This document shows positions 52,182 to 59,293 of a DNA stretch of 64,000 nt, piece by piece. The translations under genes and the position numbers were made by a program. Below the pieces are notes generated by a model. That model did not search any database. It was not told the origin of the DNA and saw nothing but the letters and a program-made list of their open reading frames with translations. The DNA comes from Planctomycetota bacterium. GTDB lineage: Bacteria > Planctomycetota > SZUA-567 > H5-PLA8. How positions within the stretch are numbered: position 1 is the stretch's first letter; each line of letters starts with the position of its first letter. The stretch covers positions 128,001-192,000 of the forward strand of contig JBBRPR010000002.1 of the NCBI GenBank assembly GCA_038227875.1, in the 5' to 3' direction.

Positions 52182-52231
52182 CCCCGTGTAGTTACACGGA
52201 AGCCTGAAAGGCCCACTTGGAGACTTTCCTC

Positions 52232-54712
52232 ATGCCCGCCGTTACCGACCCCTTCCATCGCACCTACACTGACAAAAGCCTCGCCTTCGTCGCGTTCCCC
52301 ATGGGCGGCATTGGCTCTGGGACCATCTGCTTGGAGGGCACCGGCGCGCTCTCGCATGTCTCGCTGCGGCACAAGCCAGAGGTCTGGAACGAACCGCAGG
52401 TCTTCTCGGCGCTCTGCATCAAAGGCGCCCCGGGGCAGGAGAACATCGCCCGCGTGCTCGAAGGCCAGGTGCCGCGGCATAAGATTTTTACTCAACAGGG
52501 TTCCGGCAACGGCCTGGGCTCGCGCGCGTACGGGCTGCCGCGCTTTAAGAAAGCCTCGTTCTCTTCGCGCTTCCCGTTTGGAACTGTGCGGCTGGAAGAT
52601 CCGAAAATTCCGCTGCAGGTCATGATCACCGGTTGGAGCCCCTTCATTCCCGGCAACGCGGATGCGTCGAGCCTTCCCTGCGCGGCGCTGGAATTCAATT
52701 TTAAGAACCCAACCAATAAAACCATCGACGCCGTCTACTCCTTCAACGCACGCAATTTTCTCGGGATTCACAAGGACCAGCAGGCGGTGCTCGGCATGCC
52801 CGGCGGATTCCTCCTGCGCGCCACCGGCACGGCCGAGAAGCCCCACGAAGAAGCTTCGTTCGCAGCGGTGACCGACGACAGCGCGGCGAAGACCAGCTAC
52901 TGGTTCCGCGGCGGTTGGTTCGATCCGATGACCGTGGCGTGGAAGCGCGTGCAGGAAGGTTACTGCGACGAGCAGCCACCCGTGACCGGTGCGCCGGCGC
53001 CCGGCGGGATGCTCGCCGTTCCGTTCACGTTGAAGCCCGACGAGCAGAAAACCATCCGGCTGATGCTCAGCTGGTACACGCCCTACACCGATCAGCGTTA
53101 CGGTCCCGAAATTCCTGCGCCGGCTGCCGCTGCGGCCGCGTCGTGCTCCGATGCTTCCTGCGATTGCAAACCCGCAAAGCCGGAAAGCTATCGCGCCTGG
53201 TACACCGGCGCGTTTCCGGACGTCACATCCGTCGCGCAACACTGGCGCACGCAGTATGCGACGTTGCGGGAGAAGACGAAGCAGTTCACCGATTGTTTCC
53301 ACAACACGTCGCTGCCTGAAAGTGTGGTCGACGCGATCGCCGCCAATCTCTGCATCCTGAAATCGCCGACCGTGCTGCGCCAGCGCGACGGACGCATGTG
53401 GGCGTGGGAAGGCTGCGGCGACAACCACGGTTGCTGCACCGGCTCGTGCACCCACGTCTGGAACTACGCGCAGGCCATCCCGCATCTTTTCCCCGATCTG
53501 GAACGCACGCTCCGCGAAACGGAGTTCATTGATTCGCAGAACGAAGCCGGGCATCAGAATTTCCGCGCGTCGCTGCCGATTCGTCAGCCCGATCACAAAT
53601 TTCACGCCGCGGCCGACGGGCAGCTCGGCGGCATCATGAAGATGCACCGCGAGTGGCGCATCAGCGGCGACACCGCGTGGCTGAAGAAACTCTATCCGGC
53701 CGTGAAGCAGAGCTTGAATTACTGCATTGAAACGTGGGATCCGAAAGAGAAAGGCGTACTCGAAGAGCCCCATCACAACACGTACGACATCGAATTCTGG
53801 GGCCCCGACGGCATGTGCTCGAGTTTCTACCTCGGCGCGCTGGCCGCGGCGATCAATATGGGCGCGGCGCTGAACGATGACGTCTCGCGTTACAAAACGC
53901 TGCTGGCGAAGGGCCGCACGTACCTCGAAGAAAAACTGTTCAACGGTGAGTACTTCTTCCAGGACGTCCAGTGGGAAGGCCTGAACGCCAAAAATCCAAT
54001 CGACGGTGGCGCCGGAGCCACGAACACGCCGATTGCGATGAACTCCGATTACTCGCCCGAAGCAGTGGAAATTTTGAAGCGCGAAGGGCCGAAGTACCAG
54101 TACGGCAAAGGCTGTCTGGCCGACGGGGTGCTCGGAATCTGGATCGCGGCGATGTGCGGCATCGACAACGTGCTCGATGAACGCAAAGTCGAAAGCCACC
54201 TGCTCTCTGTCTATAAATACAATCACAAGACGGACGTGAGCGAGATTCCCAATCCGCAGCGGCCGGGTTACACGCAGGGCATCGACGGCGGGCTGCTGAT
54301 CTGCACGTGGCCGAAGGGCGAACGTCTAACGCTGCCGTTTCCGTATTCCGACGAAGCGTGGACGGGCATTGAATACCAAGTCGCCAGCCACCTCATGCTC
54401 GCCGGCCACGTTGAAGAAGCCCTGGAAATCGTCCGCGTCGCGCGCCTGCGCCACGACGGCTCCGTCCGCAATCCGTACAATGAATACGAATGCGGAAGCT
54501 GGTACGCGCGCGCAATGTCCTCCTACGGCATGATCCAGGGAATGACCGGACTGTTCTACGATGCCGTGACGAAAAAGCTGACGTTCCAGCCGCGGATCAA
54601 AGGCGACTTCCGCGCGTTCCTATCAACTGCGACGGGATTCGGCTACGCGGGCATCAAGAACGGCAAGCCCTTCGTCGAAGCCGTCGCGGGTACGATCGAC
54701 GCGAAATTCTGA
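52232..54712 (+). CDS. GH116 family glycoside hydrolase (GBA2-like)
   Basis: FPMGGIGSG, WEGC, GSCTHVWNY, HNTYD, E.WTG.EY, ECG..YAR.MSS. Confidence 0.92.
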   Translation: MPAVTDPFHRTYTDKSLAFVAFPMGGIGSGTICLEGTGALSHVSLRHKPEVWNEPQVFSALCIKGAPGQENIARVLEGQVPRHKIFTQQGSGNGLGSRAYGLPRFKKASFSSRFPFGTVRLEDPKIPLQVMITGWSPFIPGNADASSLPCAALEFNFKNPTNKTIDAVYSFNARNFLGIHKDQQAVLGMPGGFLLRATGTAEKPHEEASFAAVTDDSAAKTSYWFRGGWFDPMTVAWKRVQEGYCDEQPPVTGAPAPGGMLAVPFTLKPDEQKTIRLMLSWYTPYTDQRYGPEIPAPAAAAAASCSDASCDCKPAKPESYRAWYTGAFPDVTSVAQHWRTQYATLREKTKQFTDCFHNTSLPESVVDAIAANLCILKSPTVLRQRDGRMWAWEGCGDNHGCCTGSCTHVWNYAQAIPHLFPDLERTLRETEFIDSQNEAGHQNFRASLPIRQPDHKFHAAADGQLGGIMKMHREWRISGDTAWLKKLYPAVKQSLNYCIETWDPKEKGVLEEPHHNTYDIEFWGPDGMCSSFYLGALAAAINMGAALNDDVSRYKTLLAKGRTYLEEKLFNGEYFFQDVQWEGLNAKNPIDGGAGATNTPIAMNSDYSPEAVEILKREGPKYQYGKGCLADGVLGIWIAAMCGIDNVLDERKVESHLLSVYKYNHKTDVSEIPNPQRPGYTQGIDGGLLICTWPKGERLTLPFPYSDEAWTGIEYQVASHLMLAGHVEEALEIVRVARLRHDGSVRNPYNEYECGSWYARAMSSYGMIQGMTGLFYDAVTKKLTFQPRIKGDFRAFLSTATGFGYAGIKNGKPFVEAVAGTIDAKF

Positions 54713-54967
54713 AACAAAATATGAGGGTGGAGCGGAGAACCGGCGTTTCTCCGCTTCACCCGACCCTAATTGTTCGCTCTCAAAACCTACCGAAGATTAA
54801 TTCCTAGTAATCCGCTAGACATTGTGGAAAATATTTGCAATCCGTGGCCCGGATGCAACTTGCTCCCATCGCTCCTTCAGCGATAATCCACTTCATCAAG
54901 ATGGGAATGCGCGGGCCAATTGGCCCGCGTCGTCTTACTGTACCTTAAAGAAGGGAACGGTCGGTTC

Positions 54968-55777
54968 ATGGATCACCTGGAAGAGTTGGAAAATCAGAGC
55001 GTCTTCATCATGCGTGAAGCGTTCAATAAGTTTGAAAATTTGGCGATGCTCTGGTCGATCGGCAAGGATTCGACGGTGCTGTTGTGGCTGGCGCGCAAGG
55101 CGTTCTTCGGCCACGTGCCGTTCCCGCTGGTCCACATCGACACCTCCTACAAAATCCCGTCGATGATTGAGTACCGCGACCGCGTGGCTCAGGAATGGAA
55201 CCTGAACCTGATCGTCGGCAAGAACACCAAGGTGCTGGAAAGCGGCATCACCTATCCCAACGGCAAAGCCACGCGCGTGGAATGCTGCGGCACGTTGAAG
55301 AAAGACGGCCTGAAGAAGGTGCTCGACGAACACAACTACACCGGCGTGATCGTCGGCGTGCGCCGCGACGAGGAACCGACGCGCGCGAAGGAACGCTACT
55401 TCTCGCCGCGCGACAAGAACATGGAATGGAACGTCGAAGACCAGCCGCCGGAGTTGTGGGACCAGTTCAAGACCGACTTCGATCCCGGCACGCACATCCG
55501 CATCCATCCGCTGCTCCACTGGACCGAGCTGAATGTGTGGGAGTACATCCACAAGGAAAACATTCCGATCATCCCGCTCTATTTCGCCAAGAACGGCCGC
55601 CGCTACCGCAGCCTCGGCTGCGCCCCCTGCACCGGCGACATCGCCTCAAACGCGACGACGGTGGCGGAGATCATCGAAGAACTGAAAAACACGAAAACCG
55701 CCGAACGCTCGGGACGCGCGCAGGACCAGGAGAGCGAGGATGCGTTCGAGAAGCTCAGGCGCGATGGGTACATGTAG
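54968..55777 (+). CDS. cysD: Sulfate adenylyltransferase subunit 2
   Basis: WSIGKDS, HIDT, RRDEE..RAKER.FS.R, RIHPL..WTE, YRSLGC, GYM end. Confidence 0.97.
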
Positions 55778-55779
55778 TC

Positions 55780-55818
55780 GCTTTTAATCGCACGCAAAGC
55801 CGCTAAGACGCAAAGAAC
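55780..55818. repeat. Left inverted repeat flanking the GxxExxY gene (CGCWAAGN octamers)
   Basis: gcttttaatcgcacgcaaagccgctaagacgcaaagaac. Confidence 0.9.
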
Positions 55819-55830
55819 AGCAACTGCTTT

Positions 55831-56223
55831 ATGACTGAGAATGAGATCGCGAAGGTGGTTGTCGACGCGGCGTTTAAAGTGCATTCAAAGTTGGGGCCGG
55901 GGTTGCTTGAATCGGTGTACAAAGTCGCGCTTGCATATGAACTTCGAAAGCGCGGATTGAAAACTGAACGAGAGGTACCTGTACCGTTCAGGTACGAAGA
56001 CATTGTTTTTGAAGAGGGATTCCGGGCCGATCTCGTCATCGAAGATAAGGTCGTGATCGAGCTGAAGAGTGTCGAGGAAACCGCGTTGGTCCACAAAAAG
56101 CAATTGTTGACCTACCTGCGCCTCATGGACAAGCGATTAGGATTGCTAATCAATTTCGGCGAAGCAATGTTCAAAGACGGAGTTTCCCGAGTCGCAAACA
56201 AACTCGAGGAAGAAAAGAAATAA
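55831..56223 (+). CDS. GxxExxY protein (PD-(D/E)XK-like fold)
   Basis: LGPGLLESVY; RADLVIEDKVVIELKS; QLLTYL; GLLINF. Confidence 0.95.
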   Translation: MTENEIAKVVVDAAFKVHSKLGPGLLESVYKVALAYELRKRGLKTEREVPVPFRYEDIVFEEGFRADLVIEDKVVIELKSVEETALVHKKQLLTYLRLMDKRLGLLINFGEAMFKDGVSRVANKLEEEKK

Positions 56224-56261
56224 ATGAGAAGCCGGGCCGCAGAACTTAATAGTAATCAGCA

Positions 56262-56301
56262 GTTCTTTGCGACTTAGCGTCTTTGCGAGAGATTAAAAAG
56301 C
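56262..56301. repeat. Right inverted repeat flanking the GxxExxY gene
   Basis: gttctttgcgacttagcgtctttgcgagagattaaaaagc; 4 mismatches and 1 indel versus the left arm. Confidence 0.9.
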
Positions 56302-56326
56302 AGTGCCTAACGAGGAGAGCTCAAGA

Positions 56327-58213
56327 GTGTCCGCCAAGACCGAAACCAAGAACGTCGAACAAATGAAGATCGTGATCGTCGGCCATGTCGACCATGGCAA
56401 GTCCACCTTCGTGGGGCGCTTGTTTTACGATACGGGGTCGCTGCCGACGGGGAAGTATGAGCAACTGGTGCGCATCGCCGAACGGCGCGGCGTGCCGTTT
56501 GAGTTTGCGAACTTGATGGACAGTTTGCAGAGCGAACGCGACCAGAATATCACCATCGATACCGCGCAGATCTGGTTCTCCACTCCGCGGCGGCAGTATG
56601 TGATCATCGACGCGCCCGGCCACAAGGAATTCCTCAAGAACATGATCACCGGCGCGGCCAGCGCCGACGCGGCACTGCTCCTCATCGACGCTCACGAAGG
56701 CGTGCAGGAACAGTCGCGCCGCCATGGCTACATGCTCCATCTGCTGGGCATCCGCCAGGTGATCGTGCTCGTGAACAAAATGGACTTGGTCAACTACAGC
56801 GCGGAGACTTTTAAGAAGATCGAAACGGAATACCGCGCGTTCCTGACCCAGTTGGGCGTCGTGCCGAAGCTGTTCATTCCGATCGCAGCGAAAGTCGGCG
56901 ACAACATCGCCAAGAACAGTGAGAAGACGCCGTGGTACGACGGCCCGCCGGTCGTTGGCGCAATCGACACGCTTTTCCAGGTCGCGCCGCCGCCGACGCA
57001 CCTGCCGTTCCGCTTTCCGATTCAGGACATCTACCGCTTCGACCATCGCCGCATCCTCGCCGGGCGTGTGGAATCGGGAACGGTGAAGGTCGGCGATCGC
57101 CTCGTCTTTGGACCGCGCAACAAGGAAGGCATTGTCAAAACGATCGAACGCTGGAGCGCGCCGCAGACGGACACGGCGTCCGCGGGTGAATCCGTGGGCA
57201 TCACGCTGACCGAACAGATCTTCGTCGAACGTGGCCACGTCGCCAGCCACTTGAAAGACGCGCCGATCGTCGGCACGGAATTCAGCGCCAATCTGTTCTG
57301 GCTCGGCCGCCAGCCCATGGAAATGGGCAAGCGCTACAAGCTAAAACTGACCACGCAGGAAGTTGAAGTCGAGATCGCGGCGATCAACAAGATCATCGAC
57401 GCGTCCACGCTGGGCGAAGCTTCGGAGGACCGCAAGTACGTCGCGAAAAATGACGTCGCGCAGATCGTGCTCCGAACCAAGTACCCGGTTGCATTCGACA
57501 ACCACGACCGCGTGCCGGAAGCCGGCCGCTTCGTGATCGTCGATCAGAAAGAAGTCTCCGGCGGCGGCATCATTCTGTACGCCAAGTATCCGGAAGCGCC
57601 GGACAAACCACGCTCCAGCAACGTGACGTGGCACAAGACCAAGATCAGCGTCGATGACCGTGCCATGCGCAACGGCCACAAGGGCGCGGTGATCTGGCTG
57701 ACGGGCCTTTCCGGCTCCGGCAAATCCTCCATCGCGACGGAACTGGAGAACGAGCTCTTCCATCATCAGCTCAACACATACGTGCTCGACGGCGACAACG
57801 TCCGCCACGGCCTCTGCGGCGATCTGGGTTTCACGCCCAAGGACCGCAGCGAGAACATCCGCCGCGTCGGCGAAGTGGCTCATATCATGGTCGACGCCGG
57901 CCTGATCGTGATCACGACCTTCATTTCGCCCTACCGCGAAGATCGCGATCGCGTGCGCAAAATCATCGAAGGCGACTTCATCGAAGTCCACGTGAAGTGC
58001 CCGGTCAACGTCTGTAAGGAGCGCGATCCGAAGGGTCTCTACAAGAAAGCATTGGCTGGCGAGATCAAGGATTTCACAGGCATCGACGCGCCGTACGAGG
58101 AGCCGCTGAAACCGGAGTTGACGATCGAAACCGACAAGCAGAGCCTCGGCGAATCCGTGGCGCAGATCATGGATTACCTGAAGGATTTGATCTACGTCGA
58201 GAAGCACACGTAA
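56327..58213 (+). CDS. cysNC: Bifunctional sulfate adenylyltransferase subunit 1 / APS kinase
   Basis: [17 protein letters not shown] GTPase motifs; [28 protein letters not shown] kinase motifs. Confidence 0.96.
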
Positions 58214-58233
58214 GACGGCATTGTGGATTGCGG

Positions 58234-58270
58234 ATTGGGCGGGGAAGGTGGTCCCGCCCAATTTCGTTTT
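58234..58270 (+). terminator. Probable terminator after cysNC
   Basis: attgggcggg-N9-cccgcccaat followed by ttcgtttt. Confidence 0.65.
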
Positions 58271-58334
58271 AATCCGAGCGTTTGTCTGCCGCTCAATGGA
58301 TGACGGTCGGGCATCTGCGTAGTACAATTCTAGA

Positions 58335-59293
58335 ATGCCCAAAGCCGTTTCGAAACGCTGGCTCCGATTCCATCTGTCGACGGCGTTAGCGACGATGTTT
58401 TTTGCCAGCGGGCTGATTTGGTTGAACACGCGAACAACGCTCACGCTGGGCGACGCTGCTCCTGCTATTCATGCGGTTTTCAATGGTAAGATCGATGTCC
58501 TAGCGAACAACACTCCAGCTCAAGAAGTATTTTCAAGTTGCCTCGAGAATACTTCCGTGGAAATCATCTTTGATGGAGAATTCAAAGATTCGGTGACGTT
58601 ATCGCTCACCAATGTAAAGCCATCCGAAGCGCTCAACCTGTTGCGGAAAAGAGCGGATTGGCTTGGGGCGCGCTGGATGAAAATGCAATTCTTGTGGGCA
58701 AGCCGCGAGACGTTTTCAGAATTTGCTCCGCTATGGAGAACATTGTCGACCCGGCGTTGCGTCAAGGCCTGATGCGCAGAGTCGTAGATTTCTGTTCGCC
58801 AGCAGACCTTGCACCTGCCGATGCAGCAGATTTTCTGAGTAGTACTCGTGTGAAGATTATCTCTCAATTTCCAGAGGAACAGGTCGTTCAACGTTATGCA
58901 TTTTGGTTTAGAGACATGCGGCTGAAAACCGCGCTGAAACGGCTCGCAGTCATATTTAACGCCCATATTGTAGTTAAAGATGGAACGATTGCCTTCGTTT
59001 CACGCCAGACGCAAGACAACGCTACAACCTCTCAGCGTCAACCCGTGGAATCGGACTGGGTCACTCGGCGTACGTTTCGCCGAGGTTGGCCGCTTACCTA
59101 TTACGAATCTGTCGAATGGGATTGGGAAATTATAAATCAGGGCAAAATCGGTACGGGTGCGGTCATCGTGAATATCATGCTCAACGGCGTCGCAGTCCTG
59201 ATCTTTGCCCTTTGCTTCGAACTAGTCCTTCGCCGATGTTTTCGCGTTACCTCCAATGAGCCCACGGGTAGTATTGGCGGGATTGGGGGGTGA
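58335..59293 (+). pseudogene. HLSTA-family two-TM protein with STN-like inserts, frameshifted near 58644
   Basis: First frame KRWLRFHLSTAL...ALNLL; second frame EKSGLAWG...RGWP...ALCFELVLRR. Confidence 0.7.

Follow-up and report, generated by a model that had tools for sequence, protein, structure and literature searches.

The stretch of planctomycetotal DNA analyzed here (the window; 64,000 nucleotides, positions 128001-192000 of contig C2 in the source genome, which we call G000) carries cysD and cysNC in the same orientation, and at their junction lies a small gene of the GxxExxY family, enclosed by the two arms of an inverted repeat that is built from tandem octamers (Table 1). The left arm starts 4 nucleotides (nt) after the stop codon of cysD (TAG 55775-55777), 437 nt separate it from the right arm, and the right arm ends 13 nt before the Shine-Dalgarno sequence of cysNC, leaving that sequence outside the repeat. 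The likely cysNC start, read from the sequence, is GTG 56327 behind GAGGAG 56312-56317. For cysD, whose open reading frame (ORF) opens at TTG 54920, ATG 54968 is the likelier start because family matches and relatives align from about residue 13-17.

Table 1. Features at the cysD-cysNC junction, with positions in the window
Feature	Position	Strand	Basis
cysD (sulfate adenylyltransferase small subunit), ORF	54920..55777	+	PAPS_reduct and CysD matches; NF003587, E 1.3e-111
Left arm	55782..55821	+	Inverted-repeat search; 40 nt, 88% complementary
GxxExxY/PDDEXK_3 gene, 130 amino acids (aa)	55831..56223	+	PF13366 and TIGR04256 profile matches
Right arm (reverse complement of left arm)	56259..56298	+	Inverted-repeat search
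cysNC (fused CysN GTPase and APS kinase), ORF	56303..58213	+	GTP_EFTU and APS_kinase, CysN/CysC; NF004035, E 2.1e-192
Terminator-like hairpin and T-run after cysNC	58232..58264	+	Consensus scan

The octamer unit that builds the 40-nt inverted repeat is CGCAAAGN. The left arm reads CGCAAAGC-CGCTAAGA-CGCAAAGA and is made up of a T-rich outer end, a TCGCA tag (TCTCA in the family consensus), three CGCNAAGN octamers, and AACAGC; the right arm is its complement. Both arms share the T-rich outer end, a tag of the form TC(G/T)C(A/T), and the three CGCNAAGN octamers, and the family consensus of the arm is tTTTTaATCTCA-CGCAAAGCCGCaAAGaCGCAAAGAACgGCaa. The local inverted-repeat score at the GxxExxY gene is 55; 1000 shuffles of the flanks gave 26 at most, and a score of 55 was reached by 2 of 300 random small genes of G000. 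The enclosed gene has a G+C content (GC) of 48.1%, compared with 58.6% for cysD, 59.7% for cysNC, and 59.6% for the genome. The initial annotation had described an octamer-built inverted repeat around a GxxExxY gene of lower GC at the cysD-cysNC junction, and this layout proved correct throughout.

The encoded protein matches PF13366 (E 1.4e-40; 138.8 bits, cut-off 22) and TIGR04256 (E 1.1e-41; 141.9 bits, cut-off 35). Among 43 aligned sequences, residues G24, E27, and D67 are invariant and Y30, E77, and K79 occur in 90% or more; the GxxExxY motif and the PD-(D/E)XK catalytic residues are both present. A structure model of the protein (predicted local distance difference test score, pLDDT, 93.8) gave VIA-align fold matches to BpuSI (Z 8.1), 3ijm (Z 8.0), Cas4 SSO0001 (Z 7.7), TT1808 (Z 6.7), and Hjc (Z 6.1), a Foldseek match to Cas4 (E 1.5e-3), and, at Z of about 5, matches to tRNA-splicing endonucleases, which cut RNA. 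As modeled, the protein has a restriction-endonuclease-like fold, and because the fold scores are middling, it is placed among PD-(D/E)XK nucleases at the generic level only. No solved structure was related to it by sequence at E up to 1. PADLOC models and PHROGs gave weak matches of Cas4 type only (best PADLOC match E 3.8e-4, 18.7 bits), and a Pfam scan returned PF13366 alone, with no transposase domain. Relatives of the protein occur in none of the phage records and in 8 of 72,556 plasmid records; thus, no vector is evident. In a 2012 superfamily survey, PF13366 is entered as "Unknown" (PMC3424549).

Gene and arms recur together well beyond this locus. We compared G000 with 40 relatives (41 genomes, 21 of them with the GxxExxY family). 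One relative, the unpublished G017, enters the 41-genome counts, the set of 30 loci considered below (as L046), and the arm-free junctions, and no conclusion rests on it. A flanking inverted repeat was found at 21 of 29 fetched non-focal copies (above 36.5, the 95th percentile of a mismatched-flank control), and at 16 of 20 further copies in relatives the repeat exceeded all 100 shuffles. The arm units in these relatives are CACAGAG, CGCAGAG, CACGGAG, CGCCAAG, CACCAAG, CACGAAG, and CACAAAG, all in tandem, and one divergent protein clade has CRCRGAT units with a period of 10. We also took the 80 closest homologues from a scan of one genome per species (60-74% identity, 13 named phyla), 76 of which had testable flanks. 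Among these 76, the flanking inverted repeat exceeded all 50 shuffles in 64, and at least two units stood on both flanks in 60, with CGCNAAG in 56 of the 60 and CGCAAAG in 42; several with CGCAAAG arms come from Nostocales. Copies in the relatives that are less than 55% identical had at least two units on both flanks in 20 of 38 cases, with CGCAAAG in 0/20 and CACAGAG in 9/20. Distal segments, used as a control for the units, gave 0/85. These counts (64/76, 21/29, and 16/20) bear out the earlier idea of gene and arms as a recurring unit, and the lack of inverted repeats at other GxxExxY copies, which the initial annotation had named as the finding that would speak against it, is not what we observed.

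The type of arm follows the clade of the protein, not the host. Mapped on a tree of 120 proteins, which is poorly resolved (13 of 117 inner branches starred), arm labels change 21 times, compared with 38-44 times in 200 shuffles. Since arm type follows the protein, either gene and arms travel as a unit or the arms are read by the protein, or both are the case. From the set of arms we infer a shared unit C-R-C-N-R-A-G-N in which positions 2 and 5 vary by clade and positions 4 and 8 are free. Some columns of the protein alignment correlate with unit positions 2 and 5 (e.g., K40, E62, K89, and S119), in a test for specificity residues that is without power because only three independent pairs fall on supported branches.

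The arms also occur without the gene, in large numbers. The G000 assembly (9.3 Mb, 176 contigs, 88% complete) has a single PF13366 match, the GxxExxY gene of the window. In the same assembly, exact arrays of three or more C-R-C-N-R-A-G units number 133, and 126 of these are CGCAAAG, compared with 3 exact arrays in a reversed-sequence control; allowing up to 3 substitutions gave 163 arrays, compared with 1. Of these, 72 stand opposite a partner in hairpin orientation, giving 36 pairs, and the loop measures 42-153 nt in 34 of them. The two long-loop pairs are the focal one (449 nt between arrays) and another of 797 nt. Beyond the pairs, 12 arrays have a weak partner and 78 have none; judged by their gene context, the partnerless arrays resemble halves of decayed hairpins. 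The initial annotation had cast the locus as a minimal selfish element: the part in which gene and arms recur as a unit stands, but the arms are not private to the gene, given the 163 arrays and 36 hairpins.

Hairpin pairs avoid genes and tend to follow them. By the calls of a crude purpose-made gene caller (6008 genes), 0 of the 36 pairs lie inside a gene, and their neighbors are oriented in tandem in 20 cases, convergently in 13, and divergently in 3 (1304, 357, and 655, respectively, for spacers of at least 150 nt). The first octamer typically lies 12-15 nt behind the stop codon of the upstream gene, and conservation within the family stops about 12 nt outside the first octamer. The stems are flanked by T-rich sequence on the 5' side and A-rich sequence on the 3' side, with no U-run, and so do not qualify as intrinsic terminators. 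The loops of the 34 hairpins have only short periodic stretches in common, and the gene-less doublets are not conserved as whole units. Two arms taken from the same hairpin resemble each other no more closely than arms taken from different hairpins (34.57 versus 34.32 of 44 positions; the observed value was reached by 382 of 2000 permutations), and we found no pairing covariation between the arms of one hairpin. Since same-hairpin arms are no more alike than others, it is the arm sequence that is conserved, not merely the pairing. A PF13366 search found no gene remnant in the hairpins of G000.

Several hairpins have further internal structure. Several loops hold a nested inverted repeat of GGGATTC-like heptamers (e.g., C13:51566-51701, C20:101955-102113, and C31:74208-74352), and the stem is extended just inside the octamers by AACNGC hexamers; of 34 loops, 13 show more self-complementarity than 95% of shuffles. 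At C88:5324-5788, CGCAAAG arms stand 401 nt apart with no convincing ORF between them and a nested inverted repeat of about 65 nt instead. Outside the window but on the same contig (C2:64773-65280, L197), CGCAAAG-type arms enclose a 114-aa ORF of the glyoxalase/VOC family (PF00903, E 5.8e-10), apparently without a canonical start for its first strand. Its homologue in G009 lies elsewhere without arms, and in G009 and G015 other genes follow the orthologue of the gene upstream of it.

Arrays and gene also co-occur across genomes. Among the 41 genomes, 19 of 21 GxxExxY carriers have at least 24 arrays and 16 of 20 non-carriers have 0-1; for co-occurrence of the gene and the repeat family, the split is 19/21 in carriers versus 3/20 in non-carriers. 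We extended the comparison to 201 evenly sampled genomes of the phylum (completeness 90% or more, apart from G000), 104 of which have the GxxExxY family, and called a genome array-rich if it had at least 6 arrays and at least three times the control. As raw counts that ignore shared ancestry, 47 of 104 carriers and 1 of 97 non-carriers are array-rich, and in 37 of the 104 carriers the array count lies more than 5 above two per gene match. As a control family we used the IS200-like Y1 transposases, the enzymes of repetitive extragenic palindromic (REP) elements. Their carriers are array-rich in 36 of 98 cases, versus 12 of 103 non-carriers. Within GxxExxY carriers this signal is gone (35/74 with Y1_Tnp, 12/30 without), whereas the GxxExxY signal persists both with Y1_Tnp (35/74 with the GxxExxY family, 1/24 without) and in its absence (12/30 and 0/73). 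Thus, the association of arrays with GxxExxY is independent of Y1 transposases, and octamer arrays are almost confined to genomes carrying the GxxExxY gene.

To place the focal copy in time, we compared the junction downstream of cysD among relatives. G009, from another genus, has an intact GxxExxY gene there, 62% identical to that of G000, between CACAAAGN arms. In G016, CGCAAAG arms surround a GxxExxY gene whose middle is deleted; G001 has a lone left arm in an 83-nt spacer; and G013 has a right-arm remnant next to other palindromes. The remnants in G013 and G016 are related to the right arm at the same junction. In G003, two Uma2 genes lie between cysD and cysN (L004:2332-3548), with no octamer arms. 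In G015, co-oriented ORFs occupy more than 1.5 kb behind cysD (L005:2326-3810); four of them have no Pfam match, and cysN is absent within the fetched 1.5 kb. The junctions of G017, G005, and G034 measure 185, 63, and 4 nt and are without arms; they are the empty cysD-cysN sites that the initial annotation had proposed to look for, found here in more distant relatives. A tree with the G000 and G009 proteins as sisters has a likelihood above that of the free search and is not rejected (approximately unbiased test, p-AU 0.69; 47 rows, LG+G4). The simplest reading of these comparisons is that the cassette represents one old insertion between cysD and cysNC, made before the two genera split and decaying in several lines; alternatively, a second, independent insertion may have occurred. 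The GxxExxY copy of G000 looks old and not recently inserted. The stable synteny with cysD and cysN that had been named as arguing against a mobile element is therefore found in part.

The gene-less hairpins appear to be younger. We checked three of them against five relatives. Hairpin C3:256653 lies between the TGA and the ATG of a gene pair that elsewhere overlaps as ATGA (G003), abuts as TAG ATG (G009), or overlaps by 8 nt (G015). Because these arm-free sites have no spacer, the loop must have come in with the hairpin. In G001 the same site is taken up by a 720-nt insert that contains a Uma2 gene (E 3.4e-27; L190:2782-3366) and a degenerate array. For C18:13000, none of 4 relatives has arrays at the orthologous gene end, and for C13:51568, none of 4 has a CGCAAAG hairpin; at the latter site G009 has a CACRGAG-type hairpin and G001 a hairpin of another repeat. 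These two lie just beside the orthologue of the gene to the right of C13:51568; the one in G001 (L169, C231) is small and has GAGCCAA-like units, and the one in G009 (L172, C256) has CACRGAG units. Gene 3' ends seem to be colonized repeatedly by different tandem-unit hairpins. To judge from these three sites, the gene-less hairpins are lineage-specific insertions, younger than the gene copy.

The focal unit is likely to be transcribed with its neighbors. In the RNA structure predicted for positions 55770-56335 (-181.2 kcal/mol, z -2.73), the two arms pair with each other, whether the minimum-energy or the centroid structure is taken, and none of 100 shuffles was as stable. Between cysD and the cysNC start, consensus scans detected neither promoter-like nor terminator-like sites. 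The first terminator-like site downstream of cysD is the one after cysNC, if a weak 5-pair match at 56402-56415 within cysNC is set aside; the terminator scan is weak, because it found 3 sites where 4.7 are expected. The predicted pairing of the arms and the lack of such sites are what speaks for the putative relief of polarity by RNA folding or excision that the initial annotation had proposed. No Rfam family matched positions 54800-58400 at E up to 1. In four DNA runs, the only arm-to-arm joints were short-sided (21-28 letters) and came from other repeat copies, and no empty site or excision was seen. Among the 30 loci, focal included, 27 were callable, and in 25 of these both flanking genes are co-oriented with the GxxExxY gene (baseline 0.433, from G000 genes). 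Since the arms are symmetric, this bias toward the sense orientation points to dependence on operon transcription. The upstream neighbor of cysD is an ordinary glycosyl hydrolase of the GH116 family (PF04685 and PF12215; window positions 52217-54712, + strand).

Based on these observations, we suggest that the 0.5-kb unit, a GxxExxY gene with an arm on either side, represents one copy of a selfish cassette that is widespread and encodes a PD-(D/E)XK protein acting on the cassette's octamer arrays, in a manner like that of REP-associated tyrosine transposases (RAYTs) and the REP doublets forming hairpins (REPINs). We give this reading an even chance of being correct. The protein would recognize the octamer arrays, probably in the form of a folded hairpin or cruciform, and by cutting folded arms it might help the hairpins to spread or to persist, in the way that a RAYT acts for REPINs. 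The gene would have no promoter of its own and would be read with cysD and cysNC, while the stem formed by the arms could keep it from disturbing its neighbors. More tentatively, and with rather less than even confidence, we extend this to the family at large: GxxExxY proteins could be a second, independent invention of the RAYT life style, minimal PD-(D/E)XK nucleases reading tandem arrays in an 8-nt code, C-R-C-N-R-A-G-N, whose positions 2 and 5 confer specificity, and seeding and maintaining hairpin families throughout genomes, behind stop codons, in at least a dozen bacterial phyla.

A number of our observations weigh against this proposal. The link between protein and arms is correlative, and the contrast between array-rich carriers and non-carriers is the raw one given above. 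No array of the strict pattern is present in 32 of the 104 carriers. Conversely, no gene was detected in four genomes that do have arrays: G015 (94 arrays), G033 (23), G036 (18), and G050 (33). G009 has three GxxExxY genes, with CACAAAG, CGCRGAT, and CGCGAAT arms, and its commonest arrays are CGCAAAG; because the arms of its own genes differ, the main hairpin family of G009 (an 89%-complete assembly) is without a matching gene. The arms can also enclose other cargo, as the glyoxalase-family gene between CGCAAAG arms indicates. With its 78 partnerless arrays, the octamer-array family of G000 looks decayed. No target-site duplication was evident by eye, in the absence of a formal scan, at 35 elements or at the pair of filled and empty sites, and since the loops are also unshared, there is no sign of recent copying. 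Finally, a lone PD-(D/E)XK hydrolase is not known to be capable of strand transfer or of transposing DNA unaided.

We therefore considered other explanations, foremost that the unit is a passenger resembling the intervening sequences (IVSs) of rRNA. The arms would then be only an RNA stem that RNase III cuts, releasing the cassette; the protein would be unrelated to the arms, and the gene-less hairpins would be leftovers of gene loss. The predicted pairing of the arms in RNA, the sense orientation inside operons, and the interval without promoter-like or terminator-like sites between cysD and the cysNC start are all consistent with such a passenger, as are the G016 gene, gutted with its arms kept, the arm remnants in G001 and G013, and the solo arms that resemble half-decayed hairpins. 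The IVS of Coxiella shows the same stem-plus-ORF layout (PMC4990558). However, a stem needs no set sequence, yet the C-R-C-N-R-A-G-N unit is common to diverse clades, and the arms of one hairpin match no better than those of different hairpins and do not covary. Leftovers of gene loss also fit poorly with hairpins in which no gene remnant was found, whose loop lengths are clustered, and 13 of 36 of which lie between convergent genes, compared with 1 of 27 gene-bearing cassettes. On this evidence we regard the passenger explanation as unlikely.

Less probable still, in our view, is a domesticated regulon, in which the hairpins would be useful modules of mRNA 3' ends (for stability, insulation, or termination) and the GxxExxY protein a vertically kept binding or processing factor. 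The regular start of hairpins 12-15 nt behind stop codons and their absence from the crude gene calls would suit such modules, as would arms that are conserved while loops drift. A single-copy gene at the same site in two genera would suit a host factor, and the RNA-cutting tRNA-splicing endonucleases among the fold matches would suit a processing enzyme. Against this, the gene is dispensable, being gutted in G016, gone from G001 and G013, and not found in G015 with its many arrays, and the orthologous gene ends of relatives are without hairpins. The sequence after the stem is A-rich, not a U-run. Moreover, homologues are scattered over 13 named phyla and the GC of the gene lies 11 points below that of the genome, and for these two reasons transfer fits better than a host regulon. 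We consider it very improbable that another enzyme, such as an IS200-like Y1 transposase (a RAYT), moves the hairpins and that the GxxExxY gene merely landed in one: G000 has 4 Y1_Tnp matches, two of these genes have long inverted repeats in their flanks (scores 144 and 95), and Y1_Tnp carriers are somewhat enriched in array-rich genomes, but that enrichment vanishes given GxxExxY, Y1_Tnp carriers without GxxExxY are almost never array-rich, the flanks of the RAYT genes hold a different palindrome, GACCCCAAAGGGGTC, and across phyla the arm type goes with the clade of the GxxExxY protein.

PF13366/TIGR04256 is a large family without an assigned function, and a link to a DNA or RNA partner would make its function testable. 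Such a link would also explain intergenic tandem-octamer hairpins that reach more than 100 copies per genome. If the wider reading of GxxExxY proteins as a second RAYT-like invention is true, this functionally uncharacterized family and a set of intergenic repeats still lacking an explanation, among them perhaps those of cyanobacteria discussed below, would be two halves of one system. The gene-bearing copy would then be a self-insulating module able to live in essential operons, and the arrays might offer a programmable code for protein-nucleic-acid recognition. Stop-to-start hairpins in gene pairs that otherwise overlap indicate that tightly coupled operons, cysD-cysNC included, can be colonized, which bears on operon evolution and genome annotation. 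The series of cysD junctions (intact, gutted, reduced to arm remnants, arm-free, and replaced by Uma2) provides a natural record of how a cassette ages. Full-text searches on family names, accessions, and repeat strings, which did not cover subscription journals, returned no description of the arms, and a selfish GxxExxY element with octamer arms is apparently undescribed.

Parts of this system resemble others. Uma2/DUF820 (PF05685) is likewise a small PD-(D/E)XK family of unknown role and occupies the same operon junctions in relatives, but it is a different family, and its site in G003 has no octamer arms and that in G001 only a degenerate array. Like miniature inverted-repeat transposable elements (MITEs), as generally understood, the gene-less hairpins are short intergenic units with terminal inverted repeats that occur alongside a rarer gene-bearing form; unlike them, the GxxExxY unit has no transposase family, and the interiors are not conserved between copies. 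The short tandemly repeated repetitive (STRR) sequences of filamentous cyanobacteria are also intergenic tandem arrays of 7-8-nt units, and the Nostocales homologues described above have CGCAAAG arms; to our knowledge, STRRs are repeats without a linked gene.

The IVS in the 23S rRNA of Coxiella burnetii measures 428 nt, contains an S23p ORF, and has been called a selfish element (PMC4990558). Like such ORF-bearing IVSs, the cassette has a small ORF within complementary ends that are predicted here to form a long stem in the host transcript. Unlike them, it resides in a protein-coding operon junction and not in helix 25 or 45, and its ORF belongs to PF13366 and not to PF05635. A conserved arm repeat unit and many gene-less copies are features that are not known for IVSs. 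G000 itself has a PF05635 gene ("23S rRNA IVS protein"; E 5.4e-33) outside any rRNA gene (C9:109003-109308, L161), with four tandem GAACAGCA units upstream and a 27-nt flanking inverted repeat (score 44, shuffle maximum 31). As candidate octamer carriers the PF05635 genes of G000 were rejected: one of the two has an inverted repeat above shuffles, and it is not of the octamer type.

The closest parallel is with the REPIN-RAYT systems, or REPtrons, reportedly found in proteobacteria. In both, inverted copies of a repeat found throughout the genome stand on either side of a gene that is kept as a single copy by vertical descent, the repeat forms many gene-less intergenic hairpin doublets, and repeat and gene co-occur across genomes with the repeat type tied to the gene clade. 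The enzyme here, however, is a PD-(D/E)XK protein of PF13366 instead of an HUH Y1 transposase, each arm is a tandem array of octamers in place of a single palindrome, and the loops are not conserved. The Y1_Tnp genes of G000 lie elsewhere and have another palindrome. Two of them, IS200-like (C72:36122-36574, PF01797, E 1e-26; and C9:158288-158740), with GACCCCAAAGGGGTC in their flanks, resemble classical RAYT/REP units and occur in the genome alongside the octamer hairpins. An old gene at a single site, accompanied by younger dispersed hairpins with the same arms, is also the pattern reported for RAYT genes and their REPINs.

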